A DNA stretch of 64,000 nucleotides from an uncultured Chloroflexia bacterium. GTDB taxonomy: Bacteria > Chloroflexota > Limnocylindria > Limnocylindrales > CSP1-4. Location of the stretch: positions 86,454 through 150,453 of the forward strand of contig CAVVNQ010000004.1 in the NCBI GenBank assembly GCA_963749705.1. The letters are read 5' to 3'. A program made the translations under genes and the position numbers. The notes under the pieces were generated by a model that was given only the letters and a program-made list of their open reading frames with translations, was not told where the DNA came from and did no database searches. Position 1 is the first letter of the stretch. Each line of letters opens with the position of its first letter. This document shows positions 26,301 to 58,721 of this stretch, in pieces.

Positions 26301-26405
26301 GTGGGCACCGCCAGCTGCGGGCCGGATACCCTCGAGCCGTACGTCCTGCGCCCGGGCACGTACCGCTGGGCGTGGACGATCTCGACGGAGACCACCCCCG
26401 CATGA
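23357..26405 (+). CDS. lacZ: Beta-galactosidase (GH2, LacZ-like); apparent single-base insertion frameshift near 23790-23805
   Basis: N-terminal part (IYTNVQMPFP, ENPTGVYER) in one frame; remainder (WSLGNESGYG, MCEFSHAMGNSNG, AYGGDFGDVPNDGTFVLDGMVFPDRRPKP) in the +1 frame. The junction EISGL/RPGANDLRLTVVKWSD matches E. coli [21 protein letters not shown]. Confidence 0.8.
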
Positions 26406-26418
26406 GGATCCGCCCGAC

Positions 26419-28665: not shown

Positions 28666-28668
28666 GGG

Positions 28669-29937
28669 TCAGCCGCCGCAGCCTTCTCCGGCCACGACGG
28701 GCGGGACCGCCGGGCCCAGCGTGAACCCCTCGCCCAGCGCCGCGAGGAAGGCGGCTCGGAGCGTCGGATCGGCCGCGATCCGCCAGTCCACGACCGCGTC
28801 GACCTCGGCTTCCGTCTTGCGCCACTCGAACCAGTTGACCATCCGGAGCCACGGGAAGCGGACCGATGCCTGCGTCCCGAACACCTGACCAAGCCACGCA
28901 CGCTTGATCTCCGACTCCCCCGCCCCACCCGCGCCGGGACGGTAGAACGCGGCGGTCTCGACGATCGCCAGCGGCTTCGAGAACCGCTCCGCGTAGCCGG
29001 TGTAGAAGTCCGGAACCGACGCCGACCCCGTCATCAGGCCCACGAACGCACCGTCAGGCGGGAGCTCGTTCTCGCCCCACGGATACGCCAGACCCCAGAA
29101 GTACAGGCTCATGCCGACCCAGTCCACGTACCCGGGTCCCGGCCAGTACGGCGCGTACGGATCGTCGGTCGCGTCCAGGATCCCGTCGCCGTCGGTGTCA
29201 AGGGTCGTGGCCGCCGGGCTGCCGGGCGCGGCCCCGTACCGGCCGCCGGCGTATGGGTAGCCGTCTCCCTGGTTGGGCGCCCACAGCATCGCGGACGTCG
29301 GCGAGCCGGCGTGCACCGCATCGGCGACCCGACGGAACGCCGCGACATAGGCCGCCGGATCCTGGCCCCACGGATACCAGCTGCCGTTCATCTCGTGCGC
29401 GAACCGGACGATCGTGGGCACACGTGCCGCGCCATAGCGGGCGAGCCGGGTCGCGAGATTCGCGGCGACGGCGTCGGTCACCGCGGCCAGCCCGCCCCAT
29501 GGCTCGAGCGTGACGACCAGGACGGCCCCGGCGCTCGCGGCCTGGTCCGCCGCGGCGTCGAGGTTGGCCGCGTCGCCGTCGGTGAGCGGGAACGCCACGA
29601 AGCTCACGACGTCGGCGGGTGGCCGGCCCAGCTCCGCCTCGAGCTGTGCGACGGTCTGCGACCCCCAGTCGAGGTTCATCCCCACCCAGGCGCCCGTGTC
29701 CGGCCCGTGGCGGGCAAGGGCGCCGATCGCGTCCGCCGATGACGCGCTCGATGCGCACGGGCTGGTCGCGGCCGACGGGGTGCCGGCGCTCGGGGTGCCG
29801 GCGCTCGGGGCGCTCGCCCCCGTCGATGCGGCGGGGTCGGCCGCGGGCGTCGCCGGGCCCGCGGCACACGCGGCGATGGTGACCGCGAGCACCAGGACGC
29901 GACCGGCGCGACGTACGGGAACAACGATGTGCAGCAT
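28669..29937 (-). CDS. Secreted lipoprotein glycoside hydrolase, GH26-like (mannanase-like)
   Basis: Lipobox LAVTIAAC; RFAHEMNGSWYPWG resembles the GH26 catalytic-acid region; Ser/Ala/Pro-rich linker after the signal. Confidence 0.55.
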   Translation of the reverse strand: MLHIVVPVRRAGRVLVLAVTIAACAAGPATPAADPAASTGASAPSAGTPSAGTPSAATSPCASSASSADAIGALARHGPDTGAWVGMNLDWGSQTVAQLEAELGRPPADVVSFVAFPLTDGDAANLDAAADQAASAGAVLVVTLEPWGGLAAVTDAVAANLATRLARYGAARVPTIVRFAHEMNGSWYPWGQDPAAYVAAFRRVADAVHAGSPTSAMLWAPNQGDGYPYAGGRYGAAPGSPAATTLDTDGDGILDATDDPYAPYWPGPGYVDWVGMSLYFWGLAYPWGENELPPDGAFVGLMTGSASVPDFYTGYAERFSKPLAIVETAAFYRPGAGGAGESEIKRAWLGQVFGTQASVRFPWLRMVNWFEWRKTEAEVDAVVDWRIAADPTLRAAFLAALGEGFTLGPAVPPVVAGEGCGG

Positions 29938-30015
29938 GGGATCGTTGGCCACTGTGGAAGGCGGGTGCGACGCCGTCAACGGGACGATCGTCCGGCGGAC
30001 GCCGCCAGGCTGCGA

Positions 30016-31221
30016 TCAGGCGAGCCGCCGCGCCCCCGCGTTCGCCTCGACCGGGAACACCCGCGGCACCAGCCCCGTCCGGGCCGGGTAGTCGCGCAGC
30101 ACCGCCTCGCGCAGCGCGTCCACCGCGTCCCGGCGCACGAGGTTGATCGTGCAGCCGCCGAACCCCGCCCCGGTCAGCCGGGCGCCGATCACCCCCGGCG
30201 TCGCCCGCGCGATCTCCACCAGCGCGTCGAGCTCCGGGCTGCTCACCTCGTACAGGTCGCGGAGCGACGCGTGGCTCGCGTAGAACAGGCGGCCCACGGT
30301 GTCGAGGTCGCCGGCCTCGAATGCCGCGATCGAGTCCAGCACCCGCTGGTTCTCGGCGACGATGTGCTCGGCCCGGCGGGCGGCGACCGGGGCCAGCCGG
30401 TCTCGCACCCGGTCGAGCATCGAGGGCGTGACGTCACGCAGGGCGGTCACCCCAGGCTCGACCGCGGCGATCGCCGCGACGGCCGCCTCGCACTGCGCGC
30501 GACGCTCGTTGTACGCGGATGCCTCGAGCTTGCGCGGCGATCCCGAGTGGCAGGCGACCAGCGCGACGTCGTCCAGCGGCAGCGGCACCGACCGGTGCTC
30601 GAGCGACCGGCAGTCGAGCAGGAGCGCCCGGCCCGGCTCGCCGAAGACGCACGCGAACTGATCCATGATCCCGTTGTTGAGCCCGATGTAGCCGTTCTCC
30701 GAGCGCTGGACGACATGGACCAGGCGCATCGGGTCGAGCGGCGGCCGGTCACCGCCGGACAGCGCCCAGGCGGCCACCACCTCGATCGCCGCCGACGATG
30801 ACAGCCCGGCGGCCTGCGGGAGGTCCGAGGCGAGCAACCCGCGAAACCCGCGCGGCCCGGTGCCCGCCTCGTCCAGGGCCCAGGCCATGCCGGCCACGTA
30901 GTCGAGCCACGAGTCCCGCCGCTCACCCACCGCATGGACGTCGAACCCGCCGGTCTCGCCGCTCGCCGCCAGCGTCAGCGCCACCCGGTCGTCGTCGGTG
31001 GGGACGAGGGCGATCGAGATCCCGAGGTCGATCGCGAACGGGAGCACGAACCCCTCGTTGTAGTCCGTGTGCTCGCCGATCAGGTTCACGCGCCCGGGCG
31101 CATGCACGACGCGCACGTCGTCGGGCCGAGCGGCGGCGACCGGATCGAGCCTGACCAGCGCATCGCGAAGCGCCGCAGGGTCGCGCGCGAGGGCCGCCTC
31201 CGACGCGGCATCGAGGCTCAT
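30016..31221 (-). CDS. galK: Galactokinase
   Basis: Galactokinase signature GRVNLIGEHTDYNEGFVLPFAID and GHMP kinase motif SSSAAIEVV. Confidence 0.9.
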   Translation of the reverse strand: MSLDAASEAALARDPAALRDALVRLDPVAAARPDDVRVVHAPGRVNLIGEHTDYNEGFVLPFAIDLGISIALVPTDDDRVALTLAASGETGGFDVHAVGERRDSWLDYVAGMAWALDEAGTGPRGFRGLLASDLPQAAGLSSSAAIEVVAAWALSGGDRPPLDPMRLVHVVQRSENGYIGLNNGIMDQFACVFGEPGRALLLDCRSLEHRSVPLPLDDVALVACHSGSPRKLEASAYNERRAQCEAAVAAIAAVEPGVTALRDVTPSMLDRVRDRLAPVAARRAEHIVAENQRVLDSIAAFEAGDLDTVGRLFYASHASLRDLYEVSSPELDALVEIARATPGVIGARLTGAGFGGCTINLVRRDAVDALREAVLRDYPARTGLVPRVFPVEANAGARRLA

Positions 31222-31222
31222 G

Positions 31223-32350
31223 TCACGCCACGTCGCGGCGGATCGTGAGCGACGCGATCACGGCGAAGAACACGGCGATCAGCGCGAGCACGCCGAGATC
31301 GAGCTGGAGCTCGGGCGTCGCGAGGTCCGCACCCCGGATCAGCACCTGGCGCAGGCCGTCCACCGCGTACGTGACGGGCATCACCGCGGCCAGCGGCTGC
31401 AGCAGCCCCGGCAGGCCGCTGATCGGGATCAGGATCCCGGACAGCAGGAACTGGGGGACGATCACGAGCGGGATGAACTGGACGATCTGGAGCTCGGTCC
31501 GGGCGAACGTCGACAGGAAGATGCCCAGGCTCACGGCGCCGATGGCGACCAGCAGCACCACCAGGAACGCGACCAGCGGGCTGCCCGCCAGCTCGACCCC
31601 GAGGCCGATCGAGAACGCGGGCAGCGGCCCGATCGAGGCGACGTGCACCGTCCCCAGCGTCCAGGTGAGCAGGATCGCGACCTGGAGCGTCGCGAACAGG
31701 GCAAAGCCCAGCGTGTACCCGGCGACGACCTCGCCGCGCGTGACCGGCGTCGCCATCAGGCGCTCGAGCGTGCCACCGGTCCGCTCCCGCAGGAAGCTGA
31801 CCCCGGTCAGGATATACACGAAGAAGTAGACGAAGAACCCGATGATCGCCGGTGCGTACGGCGCGATCGGGTCCGCGCTGGGCGTCCCGTACACCGTGAC
31901 GTGCTCGATCGCCGGCATCGCGCCCGACGTCATCACGCCGATGAGCGCCTTGGTCACGATGCCCACCTGGGTGGCCTCCGCGAATGGATCGAGGCCGTTG
32001 GTGATCAGGGTGACCGTGCTCCCGACCCCCTTGTCGGCCGGCAGGATGATCCCGATCGACGCCGTCCCGTCCGCGACGGCGGCCCGAGCCGCTGCCTCGT
32101 CCGGCACCTGCGTCACCGTCCCACCATCGGCAGCGACGCCGAGCCGGAGGTTCTGGACGAAGACCGTCGCGGGAACCCCGGTCTCGACCACGGCGACGTT
32201 GACCGCCGGGGTTTCGCCCTCGCGCAGGATGAACGTGAGCAGCCCGGTCATCAGGACGGGCGCGATGAACAGGAGGGCGAGCGACGGACGGTCGCGCCGG
32301 ATCTCCTGGACGACGCGCCGGAACAGGGCTCGCAGGCGACGCGGGTTCAT
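31223..32350 (-). CDS. ABC-2 family transporter permease
   Basis: ABC-2 permease features (RERTGGTLERLMATPV); six predicted transmembrane segments; its stop lies 1 nt from the galK ATG. Confidence 0.75.
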   Translation of the reverse strand: MNPRRLRALFRRVVQEIRRDRPSLALLFIAPVLMTGLLTFILREGETPAVNVAVVETGVPATVFVQNLRLGVAADGGTVTQVPDEAAARAAVADGTASIGIILPADKGVGSTVTLITNGLDPFAEATQVGIVTKALIGVMTSGAMPAIEHVTVYGTPSADPIAPYAPAIIGFFVYFFVYILTGVSFLRERTGGTLERLMATPVTRGEVVAGYTLGFALFATLQVAILLTWTLGTVHVASIGPLPAFSIGLGVELAGSPLVAFLVVLLVAIGAVSLGIFLSTFARTELQIVQFIPLVIVPQFLLSGILIPISGLPGLLQPLAAVMPVTYAVDGLRQVLIRGADLATPELQLDLGVLALIAVFFAVIASLTIRRDVA

Positions 32351-41446: not shown

Positions 41447-41449
41447 CCG

Positions 41450-42910
41450 ATGAGCGACCTCAGCGAGCGCGACATCCAGGACATCATCGAGCGCGTCAGG
41501 CGGCGGATCGACGCCGCCTCCGAGGGCCGGGTGGGCACGGCGCTGCGCGCCGAGGCCGAGCTGGCCGCCGCGCCCACCGAGCTGGGCGACGGGATCCACG
41601 CCACGATCGACGACGCGGTCGCGGCGGCCACCGGCGCGTTCCGCGAGTTCCAGTCCATGGGCCTCGACGGGCGGCGGGTGATCATCGAGGCGATCCGGCA
41701 GTCGATGCTCGACCACGCGGAGCAGCTCGCGCGGATGGCCCATCAGGAGACGCACCTCGGGCGGTACGAGGACAAGGTCGTCAAGAACCGCCTGGTGACG
41801 ATGAAGGCGGCGGGCCCCGAGGACCTCGAGGTCGAGGCGGTGTCCGGCAGCCTGGGCATGATGGTCACGGAGTGGGCGCCGTTCGGTGTCGTGGCCGCGA
41901 TCACGCCGGTCACCAACCCGACCTCCACGGTGATCAACAACACGATCAGCATCGTGTCCGCCGGCAACGCGGTCGTGTTCAACGCCCACCCCAACGCGAA
42001 ACGAAGCTCCGCGGAGACGATCCGCCTGATCAACCGCGCGATCGTCGGCGCCGGCGGCCCGTCGGACCTGGTGACCGCGATCGTGGAGCCGACGATCGAC
42101 AGCGCCCGGGCCCTGATGAGCCACCCCGGCGTCCGGGTGCTGCTGGTCACCGGTGGTCCGGGCGTCGTCCGCGAGGCGCTGCGGACCGACAAGCGGGCGA
42201 TCACGGCCGGCCCCGGCAACCCGCCCGCGGTGGTCGACCAGACGGCGGACGTCGAGCGCGCGGGCCGCGACATCGTGCGCGGCGCGTCGTTCGACAACAA
42301 CATCATCTGCACCGACGAGAAGGTCGTGCTGGTCGTGGACTCGGTCGCGGACCGGCTGATCCGCGCGATGACCCACAACGGCGCCTACCTGCTCAAGGAG
42401 CACGAGCTCCGACGCCTGGAGCGGGTGATCTTCCGGGAGCTCGGCGAGCCGGGCAAGCCCGGCGTCATCAACCCCGCCTGGATCGGCCGCGACGCCGCGA
42501 AGATCCTGGCCGAGATCGGGGTCAGCGTGGAGCCCGAGCCGCGGCTGCTGATCGCGGAGGTGCCGCGGGATCACAGCCTGGTGTGGACCGAGCAGATGAT
42601 GCCGGTGCTCCCCGTGGTGCGGGTCGGGACCGTCGACCAGGCGATCGACCTCGCCGTCCGAGCCGAGCATGGGTTCCGGCACACCGCGTCGATCCACTCG
42701 ACCAACGTGGACACGATCACGCGCATGGCCCGGGCCATGAACTGCAGCATCTTCGTGGCCAACGGACCCAACTTCGCGGGGCTGGGCGAGGGCGGCGAGG
42801 GGTTCTCGTCGTTCTCCATCGCCTCCCCCACCGGCGACGGCCTGACCCGGCCGCGGACCTTCTCGCGCGAGCGGCGGATCACCGTCGTCGGCGCGCTCCG
42901 GATCGTCTGA
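41450..42910 (+). CDS. CoA-acylating aldehyde dehydrogenase (PduP/EutE family) with an N-terminal encapsulation peptide
   Basis: ITPVTNPTSTVINN, catalytic FDNNIICTDEK and MAHQETHLG motifs; the N-terminal amphipathic DIQDIIERVRRRI matches a PduP-type encapsulation peptide. Confidence 0.85.
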   Translation: MSDLSERDIQDIIERVRRRIDAASEGRVGTALRAEAELAAAPTELGDGIHATIDDAVAAATGAFREFQSMGLDGRRVIIEAIRQSMLDHAEQLARMAHQETHLGRYEDKVVKNRLVTMKAAGPEDLEVEAVSGSLGMMVTEWAPFGVVAAITPVTNPTSTVINNTISIVSAGNAVVFNAHPNAKRSSAETIRLINRAIVGAGGPSDLVTAIVEPTIDSARALMSHPGVRVLLVTGGPGVVREALRTDKRAITAGPGNPPAVVDQTADVERAGRDIVRGASFDNNIICTDEKVVLVVDSVADRLIRAMTHNGAYLLKEHELRRLERVIFRELGEPGKPGVINPAWIGRDAAKILAEIGVSVEPEPRLLIAEVPRDHSLVWTEQMMPVLPVVRVGTVDQAIDLAVRAEHGFRHTASIHSTNVDTITRMARAMNCSIFVANGPNFAGLGEGGEGFSSFSIASPTGDGLTRPRTFSRERRITVVGALRIV

Positions 42911-47996: not shown

Positions 47997-50123
47997 TCAG
48001 GCGCCCGCGCGGTTCCTCGGCGCGGGCGGCAGGCGCCGCGCACCGTGGACCAGGAAGTGGACGAACCAGTCGCGGACCTGGACCAGGTTCTCGGCGCGGC
48101 GGAACGGCACCCCGCCGCGGGTCAGCTCGTGGGACTCCTCCGGGACGCGCATGAAGCGCACCGGCCGCCGCAGCGAGCGCAGGACGGTGAACAGGGCCTC
48201 GGCCTGGCCGATGGTCGTCCGGATGTCGCGCTCCGAGTGCTGGATCAGCAGCGGCGTGTGGATGTCGGGAGCCCGCGAGATCGGCGAGATCGAATCGAAG
48301 TACGCAGGGTCGTCCCATGGCCGGCGACCGAACTCGGTCCACGCCCACTCGGCGTTCGAGATGTCGCCGGTCAGGAACAGCATCCGCATGTCCGCGACCG
48401 AGCGGCAGGTGACCGCGGCACGGAAGCGGTTGGTCCGGCCCACGATCCAGTTCGTGAGGTAGCCGCCGTAGGAGCCGCCCGTGATGCCCAGGCGATCCGG
48501 GTCGGCGAGGCCGTCGGCGATCGCCTGGTCGACGCCGGCGAGCACGTCCGCCATCGGGCCATCGCCCCAGTCGCCGAGGTTCGCGCGGTTGAAGGCCTCG
48601 CCGTATCCCTCCGACCCGCGCGGGTTGGCGGCGAGCACCGAGACGCCGGCACCCGCGAGGATCTGCCACTCGAGGGTCGGCGCCCAGCCGTAGAGCGTGT
48701 GGGGACCGCCGTGGATCTCGAGTGCGAGAGGCTGCCGGCCCGCTCCGGCGGGCAGCAGCCAGCCCTGGATCTCGCGTCCGTCGCTCGTCCAGCGGCGCTC
48801 GACCGGGGCGACCCAGTCGATCTCCCCCGCGAGCACGGTGTTGAGGTTGCTCAGCGGCCGCGCACCGGCCGCGTGACCGCCGCCATGCAGGTCGTAGACG
48901 ACGACCTCGGGGAACGACACGGCCGTCGACCGCACGGCGACGATCGCGTCGCGGCCGGCGACCCGGCCATGATCCCAGCCCGACAGGTAGTGGTGATCCG
49001 TGGTCAGGCGCTCGGGTGCGGAACCACCGCCCACCGGGACGCGCCATGCCTCGACGCTGCCCTCGATCGGCGCCGTGAACAGGACGTGCTCGCCATCGGC
49101 CGAGACGGCAAGCCGCGAGCGTTCACCCATCGCGACGTCGCTGTTCATCCCGGCATCGGGCTTGAGCTCGCTCGTCGCCAGCAGGTCCTCGCCGCCGTTT
49201 CGGCCGGCATCCGCACCGTCGGCGGCGAACCGCCAGATCCCGGTCCGGTACTCGCCCCGCGGGAACCGGTCACCGAGCGCGACGATCGCCGACCCGTCGG
49301 GCAGCCATGCCGGCTCCCGGAACAGCGGGTCCGGGCCCCCGGCGATGGTGGTGACGGTCCCGGTGGCGACGTCGACCGCGTAGATCCCCGATCGGGACTC
49401 GACGTCCGGGTGCCGGCCGCGGTTGGCCGCGAACGCGATCCTGCTCCCATCGGGCGACCACGCCGGCGATTCGACCGACGTGCCTCCGACGACGAGCGGG
49501 CGTGCCGCTCCCGTTGCCACGTCGACCAGCCACAGGTGCGCGATGCGATCGTCGACGAAACCGACCCCGTTGGCCATGTAGTGGAGGCGGTCGATGTACC
49601 GGAAGTCGGACCGCGGCACGGCCCCCGGCGCGGGCTTGGGTGGCCGGCGCCGACGCCGCTTCTCCTCGTCCATCGTCGCCCCGACCGAGTAGGTCAGGAC
49701 CGCGATCATCCGGCCATCGGGCGACCACGAGAGCGCCTCGACACCGCGCGGCAGGTCCGTGAGCCGATGGGCCTCGCCGCCGTCGAGCGGGAGCAGGTGG
49801 ACCTGGAAGCAGTCGTCTCGATCCCTCGGGTCCTTCGGTCGGCCCGGCTCATCTTCGGCGAACAGTCGCCGGTCGCTGACGAAGGCCAGCGTGGTCCCGT
49901 CGGGCGAGAAGCGCGCCTGGCTGTCGTTCCGGGCGCCGATCGTGAGCCGGCGAGCGTCGCCCGAGCCGTCGGCCGGGGCCGCCCAGATCGCCGACCGATA
50001 CGCGTCACTGCCGGGCGCCGTCGTCCTGACGCTGAATGCGACCATCCGGCCGTCGGGCGACAGCCTGGGGTCGAATGGAATGCGGAGGCGGTACAGGTCC
50101 TCCGGGCGTGCGGGTCTGGGCAC
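47997..50123 (-). CDS. S9-family serine peptidase with an N-terminal TolB-like beta-propeller (second paralogue)
   Basis: GGSYGGYLTNWIV nucleophile motif, C-terminal HSERDIRT and His regions, propeller repeats with SPDG motifs. Confidence 0.8.
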   Translation of the reverse strand: MPRPARPEDLYRLRIPFDPRLSPDGRMVAFSVRTTAPGSDAYRSAIWAAPADGSGDARRLTIGARNDSQARFSPDGTTLAFVSDRRLFAEDEPGRPKDPRDRDDCFQVHLLPLDGGEAHRLTDLPRGVEALSWSPDGRMIAVLTYSVGATMDEEKRRRRRPPKPAPGAVPRSDFRYIDRLHYMANGVGFVDDRIAHLWLVDVATGAARPLVVGGTSVESPAWSPDGSRIAFAANRGRHPDVESRSGIYAVDVATGTVTTIAGGPDPLFREPAWLPDGSAIVALGDRFPRGEYRTGIWRFAADGADAGRNGGEDLLATSELKPDAGMNSDVAMGERSRLAVSADGEHVLFTAPIEGSVEAWRVPVGGGSAPERLTTDHHYLSGWDHGRVAGRDAIVAVRSTAVSFPEVVVYDLHGGGHAAGARPLSNLNTVLAGEIDWVAPVERRWTSDGREIQGWLLPAGAGRQPLALEIHGGPHTLYGWAPTLEWQILAGAGVSVLAANPRGSEGYGEAFNRANLGDWGDGPMADVLAGVDQAIADGLADPDRLGITGGSYGGYLTNWIVGRTNRFRAAVTCRSVADMRMLFLTGDISNAEWAWTEFGRRPWDDPAYFDSISPISRAPDIHTPLLIQHSERDIRTTIGQAEALFTVLRSLRRPVRFMRVPEESHELTRGGVPFRRAENLVQVRDWFVHFLVHGARRLPPAPRNRAGA

Positions 50124-50226
50124 GGGCCCCTCCGGGTGGGCGGGCGGCCGGCCCGCAGCGGGCGCCAGGGTGCGCCGGGGATTGCCGGCAGTCTAGCGCG
50201 GAGGGACGGGCTACCATCGGGGCTCG

Positions 50227-51000
50227 ATGGCCGAGCAGCTCTCTCTCCGGCTCGATCCGGCGCTCCCCCGCCCCGGTGACGTGGCCCCGATGTGGCCCAC
50301 GGCCGTTGCCGATGCCTTCGACGCGCCTGACTTCCTGTTCGAGCCCACCTGGGGCGGTCACCGGGTCCTGGCCTTCGTCGGGCCCGCGGACCGGGCGGGC
50401 GGCGGCGACGTACGGCTGGTCGATCCCAACGGGCTGGAGCTGGTCGAGCGGCTGCCGGAGCTCGCCGGGCTTGCCGTGCGCGTGGCGGCGCGCTCCGCGG
50501 TGCTCGACGGCGAGCTCGTCCTGGTCGACGGGCGAGGGCGCGCCGACGACCAGGCGCTGCGCGAACGGCTGAGCGGGCGGCCGGGGCGTCCGGTCGCGTT
50601 CCTCGTGTTCGACATCCTCCACCTCGACGGCCGGTGGCTGCTCAACCAGCCGCTCGACAAGCGGCGCCAGCAGCTGCGCGCCGTCCTGCGACCGGGCGAC
50701 GAGGTCGTGGTCGTGCCCGCGATCGTCGGCGAGGGCCGGGCGCTGTTCGACGCGGTCGTCGCCCAGGGGATCGCCGGGGTGCTGGCCCGGCGGCGGTCGA
50801 GCCCGTACCTGCCCGGCGTCCGGAGCACGCTGTGGCGGTCGATCCTCGCGACCCCCGGTGCGGTCGCGGGCGAGGGCGAAACCGAGGCCGAGGCGGGGAT
50901 GACCGGCGACGGCGGGATCGACGGCCCGGCGCCCAGCGGCACCGCGCCCGTCCTCGCGCTGTTCCGACGCCTCCCGTTCGACGACGACCCGGACGGGTAA
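50227..51000 (+). CDS. ATP-dependent DNA ligase homologue (LigC/LigD adenylation-domain-like) with substituted catalytic motifs; probably inactive
   Basis: Collinear with the mycobacterial LigD ligase domain (VLDGELVLVD, FLVFDILHLDGRWLL), but motif I KxDG is TWGG (FLFEPTWGGHRV), the motif V Lys is Arg (GVLARRR), and no OB domain follows. Confidence 0.6.
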   Translation: MAEQLSLRLDPALPRPGDVAPMWPTAVADAFDAPDFLFEPTWGGHRVLAFVGPADRAGGGDVRLVDPNGLELVERLPELAGLAVRVAARSAVLDGELVLVDGRGRADDQALRERLSGRPGRPVAFLVFDILHLDGRWLLNQPLDKRRQQLRAVLRPGDEVVVVPAIVGEGRALFDAVVAQGIAGVLARRRSSPYLPGVRSTLWRSILATPGAVAGEGETEAEAGMTGDGGIDGPAPSGTAPVLALFRRLPFDDDPDG

Positions 51001-51044
51001 CCCGGCCGCGGCGGGTCGCCGGGGGCGCCTGGCCGGACGGGTCG

Positions 51045-52430
51045 CTAGCCGCGGACCGCCCGCGCGAACGCGCGGAGCCCCGGCGGCTGCCCGTACATCA
51101 GGACGCCGGCGCGGAACACGCGGATCGAGAACCACATCGCCAGCGGCACCGTCAGCAGCAACAGCCCGATCGAGAGCGCCAGCTCCCAGGGCTCCACGCG
51201 CCCGACCGAGAGCCGGGACAGCATCACGAACGGGCTCCAGATCGGGATGTAGGACGCGATCCGGATGATCGACGAGCTGCCGCCGCTCAGGGCGAGCACC
51301 GCGGGCAGGTACCCGGCGATCGCCGGGATCGACAGGGGCAGCGCGATGACCTGGAGATCCTCCGCGCGACTGAGCAGCGAGCCGGCACCCGCGTACAGCG
51401 ACGCATAGAGCGCGAACCCGAGCACGAAGTAGACGAGGAACGCCGCCAGGAGTCCGGGCGACAGCCCCGCCAGGGACGACGCGGACCCCGGGTCCTCGCC
51501 CAGCAGCGCGTTGCCGATCCTGCCCGACAGGAGCAGTGCCGCGAGCGCCGGCGCCAGCACGAGCGCCACCTGGGTCAACCCGGACAGGCCGATCCCGAGG
51601 ATCTTGCCCAGCACCAGCTGCGGTGCGGTGCCCGCCGAGATGAGCAGCTCCATGACCCGGCTGGCCTTCTCGGCGACCACGCCCGCGGCGACCCACAGGC
51701 CGTAGAACACGAGGGTTAGGAACGACAGGACCACGAACACGATGCCCACGATGCGGCGACTCGCGTACTCGGCGGTGTCGATGGTGTCGCCGCCACCGGC
51801 GCCGCCCGTGGCGCCCGGATCCACGACGTTGAACGTGGGTGCGACGAACTGCCGGCTGCTGGGCGGCTGGGTCGCCGTCCAGTCGAGGATCCCAACGGCG
51901 AACGCCCCGATCTGCAGCAGCTGCGCGCGATCCTGGCTCAGCGCCCCCACGGTCAGCACCCGGAAGTCGAGGCCGCCATCCGGGCCGCGCGTGATCAGCA
52001 CGGCACCCGCCAGCGATCCGTCCCGGACCTCGGCGGCCGCGGCGGCGGCGTCGTCCTGGCGCTCGAAGTCGAAGCGGCGGCTGGCCGCGGCGCCGGAGTC
52101 GAGCCGTGCGTTGAGGAAGCCGTCCATGACCGACACGGCCCGGTCCCCGAGCGTCTGCTCGTCGGCGACCACCGCGATCCGGGTCACCGTGACCTGGTCC
52201 ACGAACCGGACCGCGAGCGGGATGAGCGCGATCATCACGGCCAGGCCTGCGAGCAGCACCGTCGAGAACACGAATGCCCGGGCCCGGACCCGCTCGGCGT
52301 ACTCGCGCCGCGCGACCAGCCCGATGTTGCCGAGCCCGATGCTGCCGAGCCCGATGCTGCCGAGCCCGACGTCGGGCCGCACGTCGACGCGCGGATCCTG
52401 CTCGACGCGCGGATCCTGCTCGCCGCTCAT
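51045..52430 (-). CDS. ABC-2 family transporter permease with a repeat-containing N-terminal cytoplasmic region
   Basis: ABC-2-type membrane domain; N-terminus MSGEQDPRVEQDPRVDVRPDVGLGSIGLGSIGLGNIGL encoded by nucleotide tandem repeats; ATGA overlap with the downstream ATPase. Confidence 0.65.
   Translation of the reverse strand: MSGEQDPRVEQDPRVDVRPDVGLGSIGLGSIGLGNIGLVARREYAERVRARAFVFSTVLLAGLAVMIALIPLAVRFVDQVTVTRIAVVADEQTLGDRAVSVMDGFLNARLDSGAAASRRFDFERQDDAAAAAAEVRDGSLAGAVLITRGPDGGLDFRVLTVGALSQDRAQLLQIGAFAVGILDWTATQPPSSRQFVAPTFNVVDPGATGGAGGGDTIDTAEYASRRIVGIVFVVLSFLTLVFYGLWVAAGVVAEKASRVMELLISAGTAPQLVLGKILGIGLSGLTQVALVLAPALAALLLSGRIGNALLGEDPGSASSLAGLSPGLLAAFLVYFVLGFALYASLYAGAGSLLSRAEDLQVIALPLSIPAIAGYLPAVLALSGGSSSIIRIASYIPIWSPFVMLSRLSVGRVEPWELALSIGLLLLTVPLAMWFSIRVFRAGVLMYGQPPGLRAFARAVRG
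52321..52418. repeat. Two adjacent in-frame tandem repeats (15 bp x3 CCGATGCTGCCGAGC; 18 bp x2 ACGCGCGGATCCTGCTCG) in the 5' coding region of the ABC-2 permease
   Basis: Direct reading of the sequence. Confidence 0.7.
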
Positions 52431-53398
52431 GCCGCGTCCCCGACACGAGACTCGGGCGAGTCGGGGTCACCGGGCGCGAGACGGCGCTCGTCCTCCGGGG
52501 GATGGCCGACATGGTCGATGAACACCTGCTCGAGGGTCGGATCGGCTGCCTCGAAGTGGAGCACGCGGGCGCCGGCGGCGACGGCCGCCAGCAGCACCGA
52601 CTCCGGCTCGACCCCGGGATCGAGCTCCACCGACGAGCGATCCATCCCCGCCTGGATGATCCGCGTCCCGGGCACCGCGCTCAGCCACGGGAGGCGATGG
52701 TCGCCGGCAACCGAGATCCGGACCAGCCGCCGGCCGGTCGACCGGCGGACCTCGCGCACCGGACCCCCGACGACCATCCTGCCCCGGTCGACGATCGCGA
52801 CCGCCTCGCACAGCGATTCCGCGACGTCCATCGAATGGGTCGAGAACACGACGGTCCGGCCGCGGTCGCGGAGCTCGAGGAACGCCTCGCGCAGGAGCAT
52901 CACGTTGACCGGATCGAGCCCCGAGAACGGCTCGTCCATGAGCAGCACCTGGGGATCGTGCAGGACCGCGGCGATGAACTGGACCTTCTGCTGGTTGCCC
53001 TTGGACAGCTGCTCGGCCTTGCGTCCGACGAGATCCTCCGCGCGGAACCGCCGGAGCCACGCCAGCGCCTCCCGCCGGGCACGCTCGCGCGGCATCCCGT
53101 GGAGTCCGGCGAAGAACAGCAGCTGGTCGAGCACCCGCATCCGGGGGTACAGGCCGCGCTCCTCGGGGAGGTAGCCCCAGGTCGATCGCGGCAGCCGGGC
53201 GCTCGGCATCCCGCGCCACGTCACCTGCCCCGCGTCGGGCTCGAGCACGCCGACCGCGATCCGCATGGTCGTCGTCTTGCCCGCGCCATTCGCCCCGAGG
53301 AATCCGAACACCTGGCCCGGGGCGACCTCGAACGTGAGGTCATCGACGGCCACGACGGCTCCGAACCGCTTGGACAGGTGATCGACCACGAGCGCCAT
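52427..53398 (-). CDS. ABC transporter ATP-binding protein
   Basis: Walker A GFLGANGAGKTT, signature LSKGNQQKVQF, Walker B LLMDEPFSGLD; start at the ATG giving MALVVDHLSKRFG. Confidence 0.85.
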   Translation of the reverse strand: MALVVDHLSKRFGAVVAVDDLTFEVAPGQVFGFLGANGAGKTTTMRIAVGVLEPDAGQVTWRGMPSARLPRSTWGYLPEERGLYPRMRVLDQLLFFAGLHGMPRERARREALAWLRRFRAEDLVGRKAEQLSKGNQQKVQFIAAVLHDPQVLLMDEPFSGLDPVNVMLLREAFLELRDRGRTVVFSTHSMDVAESLCEAVAIVDRGRMVVGGPVREVRRSTGRRLVRISVAGDHRLPWLSAVPGTRIIQAGMDRSSVELDPGVEPESVLLAAVAAGARVLHFEAADPTLEQVFIDHVGHPPEDERRLAPGDPDSPESRVGDAA

Positions 53399-53463: not shown

Positions 53464-53964
53464 ATGAAGGTCCCGGTGGCGGCCCGGCCCCGCACGGTGG
53501 ACACGGCCCGGTGCCGCACGGTGCCCGCGGCCCGGCGAGAGTACGATCGGAGCGTGCAGGACCCGAGATCGACGACACCCGTCCGCATCGACGCGGACCG
53601 CACGGCCGGGACGCTCCGGCTGGAGTGGGCGGACGGGCACCAGACGGCATACGACGCCGCGACCCTGCGCTGGCTGTGCCCCTGCGCGTACTGTCGCGGC
53701 GAGGCGGGCCAGCCGGGCTGGCTCGACACCAACCCGACGCTCACGCCGGACCAGACGACGCTGGTCGATGTCGCCCTGGTGGGTTCCTATGCGGTCCAGG
53801 TGACCTGGGGCGACGGACACCACACGGGCTATCACACGTTCATGCTGCTGCGCGACCGCTGCCCGTGCGCCGAGTGCACGCGCGCCCGCGCCCAGCGTCA
53901 CGAGCACGAGCCCCGGGCGACCGCTCAGGCGAGCGACCGCCACTGGCATGGAGGAGACCAATGA
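53464..53964 (+). CDS. DUF971-domain protein (gamma-butyrobetaine-hydroxylase-like N-terminal domain; CPC/CPC zinc-ribbon-like motifs)
   Basis: LEWADGHQTAYDAATLRWLCPCAYC and a second WGDGHHTGYHTFMLLRDRCPCAEC repeat; an alternative GTG start at 53554 has a GGAG ribosome-binding site. Confidence 0.6.
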   Translation: MKVPVAARPRTVDTARCRTVPAARREYDRSVQDPRSTTPVRIDADRTAGTLRLEWADGHQTAYDAATLRWLCPCAYCRGEAGQPGWLDTNPTLTPDQTTLVDVALVGSYAVQVTWGDGHHTGYHTFMLLRDRCPCAECTRARAQRHEHEPRATAQASDRHWHGGDQ

Positions 53965-54305
53965 TCATCTCGACTGCGCCGTTCATCGCCGGCCACCGCG
54001 TGACCGAGACCAAGGGCCAGGTGTTCGGCCTCGTCGTCCGCAGCCGCGGCCTGGGCGGGAACCTGGTCGCGAGCCTTCGCTCGATCGCCGGCGGCGAGAT
54101 CCACGAGTACACCAGCCTGCTCGAGGACACCCGCCGCCAGGCCGTCGACCGCATGGTCCAGAACGCGACCATGATGGGCGCCAACGGCGTCATCTCGATG
54201 CGCTTCGACTCCTCGGAGATGGCATCGACCATGACCGAGATCGTCGCCTACGGGACCGCGGTCGTGGTCACGCCGGACGCGGGCGCCGCACAGCCGCTGG
54301 AATAG
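53961..54305 (+). CDS. YbjQ/UPF0145 (DUF74) family protein
   Basis: MIISTAPFIAGHRVTETKGQVFGLVVRSRG...VISMRFDSSEMA; GGAGGAG ribosome-binding site; ATGA overlap with the DUF971 gene. Confidence 0.75.
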   Translation: MIISTAPFIAGHRVTETKGQVFGLVVRSRGLGGNLVASLRSIAGGEIHEYTSLLEDTRRQAVDRMVQNATMMGANGVISMRFDSSEMASTMTEIVAYGTAVVVTPDAGAAQPLE

Positions 54306-54308
54306 CCC

Positions 54309-54662
54309 GTGGGCGTGGCGCTCGCTCGAGCCGTCATCGGGACGGCCGGCGTCCTGCTCCTGGTCGGCGGCATCGCGGTGGCCGCGACCACCGGCCCGTC
54401 CGGTGACGCGTTCTCGGCCCTGTTCCTGTTCGTTCCCGGTGCGCTGCTGATCGCCGCCGTGATCCTCGAGCGGACCCGCTACCGCTCGCTCACGGCGGAG
54501 CAGTCGGGCGATGGCCACGGCCTGGGAGGCGGCGAAACGGCCGTCCCGGATGCGCGCTTCCAGCCGACCGACGAACGGTTCGTGGATCCAACGACGCGCG
54601 TCCCGATGCGCGTGTTCGTCGACCCGCGCACCGGCGAGCGGCGGTACGTCGCGGAGCGGTAG
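54309..54662 (+). CDS. Hypothetical small membrane protein
   Basis: Two hydrophobic segments; no recognised family; GC3-biased ORF in an operon position. Confidence 0.4.
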   Translation: MGVALARAVIGTAGVLLLVGGIAVAATTGPSGDAFSALFLFVPGALLIAAVILERTRYRSLTAEQSGDGHGLGGGETAVPDARFQPTDERFVDPTTRVPMRVFVDPRTGERRYVAER

Positions 54663-54828
54663 CCGGGGCTTCACCCTGGCCCGGTCGAGGCTCCGGGCCG
54701 GGCGACCGAACGGGGGCCGCGTGCGGCTGCGTGCTATTCTCGGCCGTCCGACCGGGTTCGGGTGACGTGGCTCGCGTCACGCCCGCGTCCCCCGTCTCGC
54801 GCCCGGCGGGCACGCCTGCGAGAGGATC

Positions 54829-57000
54829 ATGACCGCCGTTCGACCCGCTCCCGGACCCCGCGCCGCGTCCCGCGGCCGACGGCGGGCGGTGCACGACCAT
54901 AAGGCCCCGATCCTCAACCGCGAGCTGTCGTGGATCGAGTTCAACGCCCGCGTGCTCCACGAGGCCCGCGACACGCGCAACCCGATCCTCGAGCGCGTCA
55001 AGTTCCTCGCGATCTTCGCGTCCAACCTCGACGAGTTCTTCCAGGTTCGCGTGTCCGGGTTGCGCCGGCAGGACCTGGCCGGCTCGCAGCACCTGTCCTC
55101 GGACGGCCTGACCCCGGCCAAGCAGCTGGACGCGATCCGGGCCCGGGTCCGGGACCTCGTCGCCGAGCATTCCCTGATCTTCGCCACGATCCGCGAGGAG
55201 CTCGCCGGCGAGGGCGTCGAGATCGTGGACTACGACGACGTTCCCGAGCACCACGACACGCTCCGGCGCCGGTTCCACGACGAGATCTTCCCGGTCCTGA
55301 CGCCGCTCGCCGTGGATCCGGGACACCCGTTCCCGTACATCAGCACCCTGTCGCTCTCGATCGCGGTCGGGCTGCGGGACCCCGAGACGGGCGAGAAGCG
55401 GTTCGCGCGGGTCAAGATCCCGCCGATCCTGCCCCGCCTGTTCGAGGTCGAGCGCGACCGGTTCGTGCTCCTGGACCAGGTCATCGAGGCCAACCTCGAC
55501 GAGCTGTTCCGGGGCATGGAGATCCTCGAGACGCACCTGTTCCGGGTCACCCGCGACGCGGACATCGCGATCGAGGAGGACGAGGCGGACGACCTGCTGC
55601 TCGCGATCGAGGAAGAGGTCCGGCGGCGGCGGTTCGGCGAGGCGGTCCGGCTCGAGGTCGAGCGCTCGATGCCGGAGCTGACGCGCAAGATCCTGATCAA
55701 CGGCATCGGGCTGCGCGAGGACGACAGCTTCGAGGTCGCCGGGATGATGGACCTCACGGCGCTGTGGCAGCTCGCCGAGCTCGACCGTCCCGACCTCAAG
55801 GCGCCGACCTTCACGCCGGTCGTGCCCCAGCGGCTGCTGCCGCCGGACGAGGACGAGCCGGTCGACGTGTTCGCGCAGATGCGGGCCGGGGACCTGCTCC
55901 TCCATCACCCGTACGACTCGTTCACCGCCTCGGTCGAGCGGTTCATCTCGCAGGCCGCGGACGACCCCCTGGTGCTGACCATCAAGCAGACCCTGTACCG
56001 GACGTCGGGCGACTCGCCCATCGTCAAGGCGCTGATCCGCGCGGCGGAGCAGGGCAAGCAGGTCGTGGTCCTGGTCGAGATCAAGGCGCGCTTCGACGAG
56101 GAGGTCAACATCGTCTGGGCGCGCAAGCTTGAGCAGGCGGGCGCCCACGTCGTGTACGGGCTGGTCGGCCTCAAGACCCACTGCAAGGTCGCGCTCGTCG
56201 TCCGGCGCGAGGGCAACGGGCTCCGGCGCTACGTCCACATCGGCACCGGCAACTACAACTCGCGGACGGCGCGCCTGTACGTGGATCTCGGCCTGCTCTC
56301 GTGCCGCGAGGAGCTGGGCGCGGACGTCACGGACCTGTTCAACGTGCTCACCGGGCTGTCACGCCAGAGCGTGTTCCGCCGCCTGCTCGTGGCGCCGATG
56401 ACGCTCCGGTCGCGCTTCCTCGAGCTGGTCGAGCGGGAGGCGGCGAATGCCCGTGCGGGCCAGCAGGCCCGGATCGTGATCAAGGTCAACTCGCTGGTCG
56501 ACACCCAGGTGGTCGAGGCGCTGTACGAGGCGGCGCGGGCGGGCGTCGAGATCGAGTGCATCATCCGGGGCGCGTGCTGCCTGGTCCCCGGCGTCCCCGG
56601 TGCCTCCGAGCGGGCGCGCGCGCGCTCGATCATCGGCGAGTTCCTGGAGCACTCGCGGATCTGGATGTTCGCCAACGGCGGGCGCCCTGAGTGGTACATC
56701 GGGTCGGCGGACCTGATGGAGCGCAACCTCGATCGGCGGGTCGAGGTCGTGACCCCGGTCGAGGATCACGAGGCGCAGGTCCGGCTCGCGCGGATCATCG
56801 AGGTCATGCTGGCCGATGACCGCCGCTCGTGGCAGCTGCAGTCCGACGGCCGATGGGTCCGGACCGAGGTGCTGACGTCGGCCGCGGGCGAGATCGACAC
56901 GTTCGCCGTGCTCAAGCAGGATGCCGCGGCCGCCGCAGCCGCCGCGGACGTGCCCAGACGGCCGCACTCGAACGTCGGATCGATGGACCCGCGCGCGTGA
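54829..57000 (+). CDS. ppk: Polyphosphate kinase 1
   Basis: PPK1 N-terminal motif RNPILERVKFLAIFASNLDEFFQVR and duplicated PLD-like C-terminal domains. Confidence 0.9.
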   Translation: MTAVRPAPGPRAASRGRRRAVHDHKAPILNRELSWIEFNARVLHEARDTRNPILERVKFLAIFASNLDEFFQVRVSGLRRQDLAGSQHLSSDGLTPAKQLDAIRARVRDLVAEHSLIFATIREELAGEGVEIVDYDDVPEHHDTLRRRFHDEIFPVLTPLAVDPGHPFPYISTLSLSIAVGLRDPETGEKRFARVKIPPILPRLFEVERDRFVLLDQVIEANLDELFRGMEILETHLFRVTRDADIAIEEDEADDLLLAIEEEVRRRRFGEAVRLEVERSMPELTRKILINGIGLREDDSFEVAGMMDLTALWQLAELDRPDLKAPTFTPVVPQRLLPPDEDEPVDVFAQMRAGDLLLHHPYDSFTASVERFISQAADDPLVLTIKQTLYRTSGDSPIVKALIRAAEQGKQVVVLVEIKARFDEEVNIVWARKLEQAGAHVVYGLVGLKTHCKVALVVRREGNGLRRYVHIGTGNYNSRTARLYVDLGLLSCREELGADVTDLFNVLTGLSRQSVFRRLLVAPMTLRSRFLELVEREAANARAGQQARIVIKVNSLVDTQVVEALYEAARAGVEIECIIRGACCLVPGVPGASERARARSIIGEFLEHSRIWMFANGGRPEWYIGSADLMERNLDRRVEVVTPVEDHEAQVRLARIIEVMLADDRRSWQLQSDGRWVRTEVLTSAAGEIDTFAVLKQDAAAAAAAADVPRRPHSNVGSMDPRA

Positions 57001-58721
57001 CCGATGTCGCCATCCCGCGACCCGGCGGCGTGGTCGAGGTCGAGCTCAAGTTCCGCATGTCCGGGACGGGCGCCGGGACCCGGCTGATCGCCGCCGACGA
57101 CCTGGCCGGGTTCGCCGCGCTGGCGCCCGCGGCGACGGTCCGGCACGAGGACCGGTACGTCGACACGGCCGACGGCCGGCTGGCGGCGGCCGGCTACGCG
57201 GGACGGTTCCGGTCGGCGGGCGATGTCACGGTGCTCACGCTCAAGTCCCTCCGCTCTGACGCCGAGGACGGCGCGCTCCACCGGCGCGAGGAGCTGGAGG
57301 GCCCGGCGATCGCCGAGGTCCCACCCGATGCGTGGCCCGACTCCGCGGCTCGCACCGCCGTGCTCGAGCTGCTGGGCGGTGCGCCGCTGAGCGACCTCGT
57401 GACCGTCCGGCAGACACGGCACAAGCGAACGTACGGGCGCGAGGGGGTCGTCGTCGAGCTGTCCGTCGATGACGTGGAGATCGTGGCCGGCGAGCGGGTG
57501 CTGGACCGGTTCGCCGAGCTCGAGGTGGAGCTCATCGAGGGCGGCGAGGCGGCGCTCGAACCGCTCGCTGACCTGCTCGCCGAGGTCGAGGAGCTGGTCC
57601 CCGCCGAATCGTCGAAGCTCGAACGGGCGCTGGAGGCCGTCGCCCACGACCGGGCGGGCACGGGCGACCTTCGCGAGGCACCCCAGGGCCCCCGGACGAG
57701 CGTGGCTGCCGGACCGGTCGAGGTGCCCGCGTCGGGCACGGACGTGACCGCGACCCAGGCGCCGGAGCCGGCCGTCCCGCGGATCACCGTCCCCAAGGCG
57801 CCGGGTGTCATCTCCGAGGACCACCTCGCCGAGGCGGGTCGGAAGGTGCTCCGGTTCCACCTGGCCCGGATGATCGCCCGCGAGCCCGGCACCCGCGTCG
57901 GCCGCGACGACGCGGAGCTGCACGCGATGCGCGTGGCGACGCGGCGACAGCGCGCCGCCTGGCGCGTGTTCGGCGAGGCGTTCGACCGCAAGGCGACGGC
58001 CCGCCACCGGGTCCGGCTGCGCGAGGTCGCCCGGGACCTGGGTGCGGTCCGGGACCTCGATGTGCTGATCGGGGCCGCCGAGATGCATCGTGCCCAGCTG
58101 CCGGCACGCGAGGCGGCGGCCTTCGACCGGCTGATCCAGGGGTGGCGCGGGCAGCGCGAAGGTGCCCGCGAGGTCCTGCTCCGGGAGCTCGACTCGGGCC
58201 GCTACCGCAAATGGGTCGACGGGTACGTGGAGTTCGTCCAGGCCGAGGGAGCGGGCGCTCTCCCGGTCGGGCCGACCCAGCCCCACCGCGTGCGGGACAC
58301 GATGCCGTCGCGGATCTGGGCGGCGTACGAGGGCGTTCGCGCCTACGAGCCCGTGCTCAGGTGGGCCGACGTGACCACCCTCCACGACCTCCGGATCGCG
58401 GCCAAGTGGCTGCGCTACACGCTGGAGTTCGTGCGCGAGGCGCTGGGACGTGACGCCGGCCCGGTCATCGAGAAGATCGTCGCGCTCCAGGACCACCTCG
58501 GCTGGCTCCACGACGCGGACGTGGCGGCGGCCCTTGCGCGCCAGTACCTGGTGGAGCACGCGGGCGACCTCACGGAGCTCGAGAGCGCGGCGATCGGCCG
58601 CTATCTCGTCGATCGGGAGCGGGAGCTCGCGCGGCTCCGGCGGACCGTCGGCGGACCCTGGCGCGGGTTGTCGAGCCTCGCCTTCCGTCGCGCGCTCGGC
58701 CGGCTCGTGGCGGGCCTGTAG
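56997..58721 (+). CDS. CYTH-domain plus CHAD-domain protein (polyphosphate-associated)
   Basis: N-terminal CYTH (EVELKFRM ... ELEVELIEG) and C-terminal CHAD helices (HAMRVATRRQRAAWRVFGEAF); GTG start overlapping the ppk stop (GTGA). Confidence 0.75.
   Translation: MTDVAIPRPGGVVEVELKFRMSGTGAGTRLIAADDLAGFAALAPAATVRHEDRYVDTADGRLAAAGYAGRFRSAGDVTVLTLKSLRSDAEDGALHRREELEGPAIAEVPPDAWPDSAARTAVLELLGGAPLSDLVTVRQTRHKRTYGREGVVVELSVDDVEIVAGERVLDRFAELEVELIEGGEAALEPLADLLAEVEELVPAESSKLERALEAVAHDRAGTGDLREAPQGPRTSVAAGPVEVPASGTDVTATQAPEPAVPRITVPKAPGVISEDHLAEAGRKVLRFHLARMIAREPGTRVGRDDAELHAMRVATRRQRAAWRVFGEAFDRKATARHRVRLREVARDLGAVRDLDVLIGAAEMHRAQLPAREAAAFDRLIQGWRGQREGAREVLLRELDSGRYRKWVDGYVEFVQAEGAGALPVGPTQPHRVRDTMPSRIWAAYEGVRAYEPVLRWADVTTLHDLRIAAKWLRYTLEFVREALGRDAGPVIEKIVALQDHLGWLHDADVAAALARQYLVEHAGDLTELESAAIGRYLVDRERELARLRRTVGGPWRGLSSLAFRRALGRLVAGL

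Follow-up and report, generated by a model that had tools for sequence, protein, structure and literature searches.

What is a DNA-ligase homologue kept for once the residues that make it a ligase are gone? This question is raised by a 257-aa protein encoded in a 64,000-nucleotide stretch of DNA, hereafter the window, from an uncultured Chloroflexia bacterium of the order Limnocylindrales (GenBank assembly GCA_963749705.1, contig CAVVNQ010000004.1, positions 86,454 to 150,453 of the forward strand). A preliminary description of this DNA had read the open reading frame (ORF) as a ligase-like protein that is inactive and stably maintained, and not a recent pseudogene. Our analysis agrees in that the protein is very probably an inert ligase homologue kept by selection, or pseudo-ligase. 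It also bears a conserved peptide at either end and has retained its nucleoside pocket, features that were absent from the preliminary description and that point to a function. The reading that we favour, to which we give a probability of about 0.4, is that this inert derivative of a ligase of the NHEJ (non-homologous end joining) type would work as a clamp-docked, non-catalytic adaptor or sensor, with its pocket and a second docking peptide.

Homology and fold

The Pfam model PF01068 (DNA_ligase_A_M) matched residues 30–203 of the protein (E = 2.5e-17). Its best relatives of solved structure were entries for the Mycobacterium tuberculosis LigD ligase domain (1VS0, 6NHX and 6NHZ; E ~6e-19, residues 19–207), and motifs I to V are collinear with those of LigD. 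This bears out the homology to the LigD/LigC adenylation domain that had been proposed. Among NCBIfam models, the nearest was TIGR02779, the NHEJ ligase domain, which aligned over profile positions 5–180 of 302 and scored 113.7 bits against a cutoff of 227.75. Scores were likewise under the cutoff for every other NCBIfam ligase model (12/12 in all).

AlphaFold2 (AF2), run on 87 family sequences, returned a model with a mean predicted local distance difference test score (pLDDT) of 85.8 and a predicted template modelling score (pTM) of 0.82. Averaged over blocks of ten residues, pLDDT was 86–98 across residues 11–210. With a shallow alignment of 32 sequences at ≥70% identity, pLDDT was 44, and the prediction became confident once a second clade was added. 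A Foldseek search with the AF2 model retrieved the same three LigD structures (E ~1e-15), with a root-mean-square deviation (rmsd) of 2.2–2.5 Å over ~193 columns. The protein would thus descend from an NHEJ-type (LigD/LigC-like) ATP-dependent DNA ligase, cut down to its nucleotidyltransferase (NTase) domain.

The OB domain had been described as missing, and the Pfam search of the 257-aa protein indeed gave no match to PF04679. Neither Pfam nor the extent of the TIGR02779 alignment revealed an OB domain with motif VI, and the tail of the AF2 model is disordered. Beyond motif V, ~50 residues remain, predicted as coil with one short helix. PADLOC had no match to the protein and PHROGs returned a generic ligase match alone; a defence or phage origin was set aside on these grounds.

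Residues lost and kept in the active site

Residues were mapped by alignment to M. tuberculosis LigD, using the active-site contacts listed in a review (PMC8656161). LigD FEGKWDGYR pairs with F38-E-P-T41-W-G43-G-H-R46, which upholds the earlier reading of motif I KxDG as TWGG: Lys481, the residue that accepts AMP, is replaced by Thr41. Since this nucleophile is absent, no ligase-AMP should form. The sole lysine of the protein, K144, is not invariant.

Motifs III, IIIa and IV had all been called conserved. This holds for motif III (D94/E96) and motif IIIa (F128), whereas in motif IV the LigD sequence EGVIAK is matched by A183-G-V-L-A-R188, with Glu613 changed to Ala and Lys618 to Arg. The claim that the motif V lysine had become arginine has to be corrected. 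With Trp as the register, W-V-K635-D-K637 aligns with W203-R-S205-I-L207, and both lysines, the pair assigned to the α-phosphate/transition state, are replaced, by Ser and Leu; R204 sits one position ahead of the lysine column and is no K-to-R replacement. Given these corrections and the lost equivalents of His465 and Arg501, inactivation is more thorough than the preliminary description had it. In LigD, E613A and K637A each lose nick sealing (PMC8656161). From the sequence and the published mutagenesis of equivalent LigD residues we infer a loss of activity: the protein would neither form ligase-AMP nor seal, as it appears to have lost the ligands for metal and phosphate on which the three ligation steps all depend.

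The other side of the pocket is retained (Table 1), and the kept residues are conserved in 50–51 of 51 orthologues. They include the motif IIIa aromatic residue, whose role is to stack on adenine (PMC7470946). Selection would accordingly seem to hold on to the NTase fold and to the adenine/ribose half of the pocket (E39, R46, E96, F128 and R188).

Orthologues and purifying selection

A protein search found >100 clusters of 245–299 aa at 70–84% identity, all with PF01068 as their only domain, and the named ones derive from Candidatus Limnocylindrales or Chloroflexota metagenome-assembled genomes (MAGs). Scanning one genome per species, we detected it in 55 species represented by Chloroflexota MAGs. 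The same substitutions occur in these 55 species and in hundreds of metagenome clusters, and across 51 orthologues the degenerate signatures T/x-W-G-G-x-R, A-G-x-x-A-R and W-R-S-I show little or no variation. The substitutions are therefore shared across the orthologues and do not mark one locally decayed copy among canonical ligases. For residues 1–207, the ratio of non-synonymous to synonymous substitution rates (dN/dS, Nei–Gojobori) had a median of 0.225 between the window gene and 50 orthologous coding sequences. Over 1275 pairs the median was 0.22, and the closest pair gave 0.04. The protein has the marks of a pseudoenzyme: homology to an enzyme family with the catalytic residues lost, together with purifying selection and substitutions common to orthologues.

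An exhaustive, profile-free search over 1.8 billion representatives, with matches then aligned to the family profile, extended the family down to 40% identity, across Limnocylindria. Its members include a second large clade, likewise from Limnocylindrales, that shares 46% identity with the window protein. Motif I of the family reads FEPxWGGxR, where x is T, A, S, R, W, C or V, and the K-x-D pair was never seen; motifs IV and V read G-x-A-G-x-x-A-R and L-W-R-x, respectively. A further search that started from the most distant member, P0247, gave 4 proteins only.

A rough neighbour-joining tree groups the proteins that lack both OB domain and lysine and that bear both terminal peptides, and in it several other Lys-less lineages branch close to the base of the canonical ligases. 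Lys-less ligase homologues thus appear to be a wider, unrecognised radiation.

The other Lys-less LigD-like proteins are 300–380 aa long and most have an OB domain (P0178, P0182, P0183, P0191, P0220, P0227, P0240, P0258, P0260 and P0266). Their lineages are metagenomic (loci L066 and L067) and have R, D or L in place of the motif I lysine. Some bear an N-terminal QLSLF or QLSLGL, or tails of the LP[LF] type. For P0183 and P0220, both OB-keeping, the contigs are too short to reveal a gene neighbourhood.

Conserved peptides at both ends

Residues 3–9 of the window protein read E-Q-L-S-L-R-L. Among the 51 orthologues, Q4 and L5 are invariant (51/51 each), and the following positions vary little: S6 is S in 40, N in 6, D in 3 and T in 2; L7 is L in 34 and F in 17; L9 is L in 48, F in 2 and I in 1. 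Residues 1–10 are predicted by AF2 to be without secondary structure (pLDDT 56). The motif by which bacterial proteins bind the β sliding clamp has two published forms, QLxLxL and QLxLF (PMC4564189), and the N-terminal 6-QLSLPL-11 of Escherichia coli Hda inserts into the clamp cleft (PMC5397184).

The pattern [DE]-Q-L-x-[LF]-x-[LIM] opens most family members that begin with their own methionine, including the deepest branches (P0138, P0124, P0134, P0169, P0185 and P0247). It was present in 27 of the 47 sequences scored as Lys-less, most own-methionine starters among them; those without it are a few own-methionine members and otherwise mostly fragments or frameshifted sequences. Just two of 42 canonical, Lys-containing LigD/LigC-type representatives have the motif. 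An OB-keeping Lys-less relative opens with MPQLSLF, which is the pentapeptide form QLxLF. As background, 727 other ORFs from the window and the loci examined contained Q-L-[SDNT]-[LF]-x-[LFI] at ~1-2e-5 per residue, a count based on 8 raw matches, half of which were family members that had slipped past the filter. This corresponds to a chance rate of ~3e-4 for the motif in a 12-residue N-terminus. On this evidence, the peptide may dock on the DnaN clamp, and we put the odds of this slightly below even. One unrelated orthologous protein, found on minus-strand ORFs of loci L012, L037 and L041, has an internal A-Q-L-D-L-x-L-x-E-P that fits the same hexapeptide pattern.

At the other end, the NTase domain is followed by a linker of 22–40 aa in orthologues, 85% of which is A, G, P, T, D or E, and then by a conserved peptide. 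P241, R248, L249 and P250 of this peptide are found in 51/51 orthologues, and the peptide is kept in all distant family members. AF2 predicts a helix at residues 240–247 (pLDDT ~65–70). Kindred tails occur in the OB-keeping Lys-less proteins P0220, P0178, P0227 and P0266, as well as in the Lys-containing P0177 (…DLTRFPF). A globular domain with a linker of this length and composition and an invariant end peptide is a layout typical of docking to a hub.

Proposed function

The sequence evidence is solid, and from it we infer the function of the ligase-like protein, namely its clamp binding, ligand binding and biological role. Besides the fold and half of the pocket, selection would keep the flexible N-terminal QLSLRL and the tethered C-terminal PVLALFRRLPF. 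We propose that the N-terminal peptide would dock the protein on the DNA-bound sliding clamp, DnaN, by entering its hydrophobic cleft. There, the dead NTase core could hold, and not turn over, an adenine-containing ligand and/or a 5′ end or nick. The C-terminal peptide might recruit a second partner or fill the second cleft of the clamp dimer. In replication-coupled repair, the protein would then serve as an adaptor, as a sensor or to regulate occupancy.

Several points weigh against this proposal. Clamp docking is predicted from a short-motif match, an error-prone kind of evidence, and we found no report in the literature of clamp binding by bacterial LigC or LigD. Around the ligase-like gene, whether in the window or in the loci examined, no gene for DNA metabolism was found. 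In known ligases, the hold of an NTase domain on DNA is weak when the OB domain is missing (PMC7470946). Folding alone could be the reason why the pocket residues persist. Finally, the peptides could serve Ku instead, because the closest Lys-containing relative with the N-terminal motif directly follows Ku.

Gene structure and upstream region

The gene and its features are listed in Table 1. Its start codon is fixed by >50 orthologues, every one of which opens with M-x-E/D-Q-L. The GC content at the three codon positions (GC1/GC2/GC3 = 0.84/0.53/0.93) matches that of neighbouring genes, in line with the intact frame and normal codon bias noted before. The window has a GC content of 72%, which yields many long spurious ORFs, and three of these overlap the gene. 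As genes they were rejected, for they fail the codon-position filter for real genes (GC3 > 0.85 with GC2 < 0.62), and they are for this reason taken to be by-products of the 72% GC DNA. Among the overlapping frames, homologues were found only for the plus-strand frame 50227–51000.

Table 1. Features of the ligase-like gene and protein, with window positions and correspondence to M. tuberculosis LigD residues.
Feature	Position	Strand	LigD residue → residue here	Evidence or state
Conserved upstream block GGGCTACCATCG	50208–50219	+		Nearly invariant in ~50 orthologous loci
Lys-less LigD-type NTase-domain gene	50227–51000	+		Complete; ATG start, 257 aa + stop; Pfam/structure homology, orthologues
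Candidate β-sliding-clamp-binding hexapeptide Q-L-S-L-R-L, residues 4–9	50236–50253	+		QLxLxL consensus
NTase (adenylation-type) domain, residues 19–207	50281–50847	+		PF01068, AF2, Foldseek
Degenerate motif I, F-E-P-T-W-G-G-H-R	50338–50364	+	Lys → Thr41, Asp → Gly43	E39, R46 kept
Motif III, V-L-D-G-E-L-V	50500–50520	+		Intact; D94, E96 each 51/51
Motif IIIa, F-L-V-F-D-I-L	50599–50619	+		Intact; F128 50/51
Degenerate motif IV, G-I-A-G-V-L-A-R-R-R	50767–50796	+	Glu613 → A183, Lys618 → R188	
Degenerate motif V, V-R-S-T-L-W-R-S-I-L	50818–50847	+	Lys635 → S205, Lys637 → L207	Includes R199
Variable disordered linker, residues 208–238	50848–50940	+		pLDDT ~50, no column conservation
Conserved C-terminal peptide T-A-P-V-L-A-L-F-R-R-L-P-F-D	50941–50982	+		Short helix, then LPF
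Overlapping long ORF (835 aa)	50005–52512	−		Other frame/strand than the gene
Overlapping long ORF	50358–50942	−		Other frame/strand than the gene
Overlapping long ORF	50634–51719	+		Other frame/strand than the gene
Nucleophile			K481 → T41	Lost
Motif I Asp			D483 → G43	Lost
Phosphate ligand			H465 → A26	Lost
Phosphate ligand			R501 → P67	Lost
Catalytic-metal ligand			E613 → A183	Lost
Motif V lysine			K635 → S205	Lost
Motif V lysine			K637 → L207	Lost
Phosphate ligand			R629 → R199	Partly kept (R 34, H 16 of 51 orthologues)
Adenine contact			E479 → E39	Kept
Ribose contact			R486 → R46	Kept
Ribose contact			E530 → E96	Kept
Adenine contact			K618 → R188	Conservative change
Motif IIIa stacking aromatic			F128 (no LigD residue mapped)	Kept; role from PMC7470946

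Within the conserved upstream block, TACCAT (50212–50217) resembles a −10 hexamer of the TAnnnT type. It ends 9 nt ahead of the ATG, and 43 of 55 loci share this spacing. This suggests an mRNA that is leaderless or nearly so, with TACCAT as its probable promoter. A second conserved block, AGTCTA(T/G)C at 50190–50197, lies at a variable distance from it. AGTCTA was ruled out as the −35 element of the ligase-like gene, since its spacing to TACCAT varies. Read on the minus strand it is TAGACT, which may be the −10 element of the divergent S9 peptidase gene. Scans for E. coli-type promoters and terminators found nothing in this 72% GC DNA.

Genomic neighbourhood

The ligase-like gene is solitary and belongs to no dedicated operon. 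Upstream lies a divergent S9/PD40 peptidase gene, and downstream a convergent pair encoding an ABC-2 permease and its ATPase. Beyond this pair, and on the same strand as the gene, the window holds genes for a GBBH-like_N protein, YbjQ, a small ORF, PPK1 and a CYTH-CHAD protein (53464–58721). In all 8 contexts whose flanks are long enough (the window and loci L001, L003, L004, L061, L062, L063 and L068), this PPK1 block follows downstream and keeps the orientation of the gene, even where the family members are ~40% identical. Genomes of the first clade keep the arrangement of the window; in the second clade the peptidase is absent and the ABC-2 pair and PPK1 block are kept. On the deep branches P0247 and P0185 there is no ABC-2 pair, and the gene abuts the GBBH-like_N to PPK1 block, with a gap of 17 nt in L068. 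P0129 retains the divergent peptidase, and L061 has PPK2 upstream.

Neither tblastn searches, with Ku and a canonical ligase as queries, nor the annotation revealed a gene for Ku, a polymerase or a second ligase in the window or the orthologous loci examined. Ku is directly followed by the gene for the Lys-containing relative P0177 (L064 7138–9035 and L065 4226–6123). This protein has the canonical KWDG, an NTase and an OB domain, opens with DQLQIEL and ends in ...DLTRFPF. By its sequence, P0177 is a putatively active, Ku-linked relative that carries both types of terminal peptide, and it may help to tell what these peptides bind.

Other observations concern the wider surroundings. In several orthologous loci, a bacterial microcompartment (BMC) set with BMC shell proteins, EutN/CcmL and aldehyde dehydrogenase lies a few kb upstream (L001 1–3751, L003 1–653, L004 1–2627 and L063 627–1969); the window has an aldehyde dehydrogenase gene at 41447–42910. 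Two neighbouring regulators of the AAA_16/TPR/LuxR-GerE type, ~1000–1100 aa each, are encoded at 8435–11494 and 12002–15322 of the window. The region 17853–31257 is devoted to galactose and galactoside utilisation, with GalT, parts of a sugar ABC transporter, a GH2 beta-galactosidase, a GH36 alpha-galactosidase, a GH26-like protein and a galactokinase.

Alternative explanations

If the end peptides dock on Ku and not on the clamp, the protein would be a non-catalytic accessory factor of NHEJ, its dead domain acting as an end-binding, bridging or regulatory subunit. A parallel exists in eukaryotes, where short Ku-binding motifs recruit non-enzymatic factors. The best family matches are NHEJ ligase models (TIGR02779), and P0177, with its N-terminal QLxIxL and C-terminal ...L-T-R-F-P-F, is encoded just downstream of Ku. 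However, no ku gene was found in the window or in the ~60 loci examined, and the N-terminal motif of the family fits the two known forms of the clamp motif exactly. The motif is moreover missing from 40 of the 42 canonical LigD-type representatives and from the aligned M. tuberculosis LigD ligase-domain chains, and is hence not a general Ku-docking device. We regard a role with Ku as unlikely.

The neighbourhood offers another explanation, that the protein has nothing to do with DNA joining and is an adenine-nucleotide or polyphosphate binding regulator, tied to the GBBH-like_N/YbjQ/PPK1/CYTH-CHAD block and using its pocket as a sensor. PPK1 and CYTH-CHAD keep their place downstream across the deepest splits of the family, and direct adjacency in L068 and the PPK2 gene in L061 fit as well. 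So does the pocket, which has kept its nucleoside contacts and lost those to phosphate and metal. Yet the convergent ABC-2 operon lies between the gene and the block, both in the window and in the two large clades, so co-transcription is not required, and synteny inside one class may be inherited and not functional. A regulator of this kind would also leave the invariant QLxLxL peptide unexplained, and we hold it to be improbable.

That the protein is still an enzyme seems very unlikely. It might, for example, carry out non-covalent nucleotidyl transfer, perform step 3 alone on nicks that are already adenylated, de-adenylate adenylated DNA (AppDNA) or use another nucleophile. D94 and E96 of motif III, R46, R188 and R199 do remain. 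Against this, there is no conserved substitute nucleophile: the motif I position varies among seven residues across the family, H45 is conserved in one clade only and the single lysine is not invariant. The equivalent of E613 and both motif V lysines are lost, in a site where one mutation is enough to end nick sealing by LigD (PMC8656161), and the protein lacks the OB domain and, with it, motif VI.

A decaying pseudogene or chance ORF, for which spurious ORFs in this high-GC DNA such as the 835-aa antisense frame (50005–52512) give some precedent, is refuted by dN/dS of ~0.22, the spread over 55 species with >50 intact orthologues and invariant end peptides, a GC3 of 0.93 with coding-type GC1/GC2, the confident AF2 fold and the conserved promoter-like upstream block.

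Annotation and relation to known systems

Automatic annotation labels these proteins ‘ATP-dependent DNA ligase’ or ‘LigD’. They should not be annotated as DNA ligases, because the motif I lysine, the motif IV and V residues, the OB domain and the family cutoffs all fail. Limnocylindria is an abundant class in soil and freshwater whose losses of DNA-repair genes are under discussion (PMC13212565), and NHEJ or ligase capacity deduced for it from such labels would be wrong. Our literature searches turned up no account of bacterial ATP-ligase homologues that lack the lysine, nor of clamp motifs in LigC or LigD. A more far-reaching claim, which we consider rather doubtful, is that these proteins are the first recognised family of bacterial pseudo-ligases, with an Hda-like QLSLxL clamp tether, an adenosine pocket and a second docking peptide, sensing nicks, AppDNA or nucleotides or else regulating how the clamp is occupied, and forming part of a wider Lys-less radiation in which some members have an OB domain. 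The protein occurs across a bacterial class, its candidate docking peptides make its function testable, and a nucleoside pocket that is kept while its phosphate and metal ligands are lost lends itself to clear, cheap experiments. Should clamp docking prove true, the protein would be a new type of client in the bacterial sliding-clamp interactome.

Compared with known systems, the closest in sequence and structure are the ligase domain of M. tuberculosis LigD (Rv0938; 1VS0, 6NHX and 6NHZ) and stand-alone LigC/LigD ligase domains, which share the NTase fold at 32% identity and an rmsd of 2.2–2.5 Å. As in LigD, motifs I to V are collinear, motifs III and IIIa are conserved, and E479/R486/E530/K618 correspond to E39/R46/E96/R188. 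Unlike LigD, the window protein has no nucleophilic lysine, motif I Asp, motif IV Glu, motif V lysine pair or equivalents of His465 and Arg501. It also has no OB domain with motif VI, POL or PE domain or Ku neighbour, falls under all NCBIfam ligase cutoffs, and has conserved N- and C-terminal peptides added. Relative to bacterial NHEJ by Ku and LigD, it is a single-domain protein, with no ku in the window or the loci examined.

Ligases of the eukaryotic and archaeal DNA ligase I type have an ATP-dependent NTase core that is tethered to the sliding clamp via a short terminal peptide. The Foldseek matches include Lig1–PCNA and archaeal ligase–PCNA complexes (7QNZ and 7RPO). These enzymes differ in that they are active, have a DNA-binding domain (DBD) and an OB domain, and use a PIP box and not the bacterial clamp-binding motif. 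Vaccinia A20 (OPG148), a replication processivity factor, is described as derived from a DNA ligase that was inactivated by disruption of its catalytic site and now serves as a non-enzymatic replisome scaffold (bioRxiv 10.1101/2022.11.22.517515). A20 is viral, originates from an NAD-dependent ligase and is detectable by structure only, whereas the window protein is cellular, derived from an ATP-dependent ligase and recognisable by sequence. If clamp docking holds, the latter would be a cellular case of a ligase fold reused without catalysis, as described earlier for A20.

In its putative working mode, the window protein most resembles Hda. Both are small non-polymerase proteins that begin with a clamp-type hexapeptide at the extreme N-terminus (6-QLSLPL-11 in Hda, 4-QLSLRL-9 here), followed by a domain that binds adenine nucleotides in Hda and may bind an adenine-containing ligand here. 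E. coli Hda, which functions in the regulatory inactivation of DnaA, acts while docked on the DNA-loaded clamp (PMC5397184). The two differ in that Hda is an AAA+ protein of unrelated fold with a known partner, DnaA, whereas the window protein would be a dead ligase NTase for which clamp binding is predicted.

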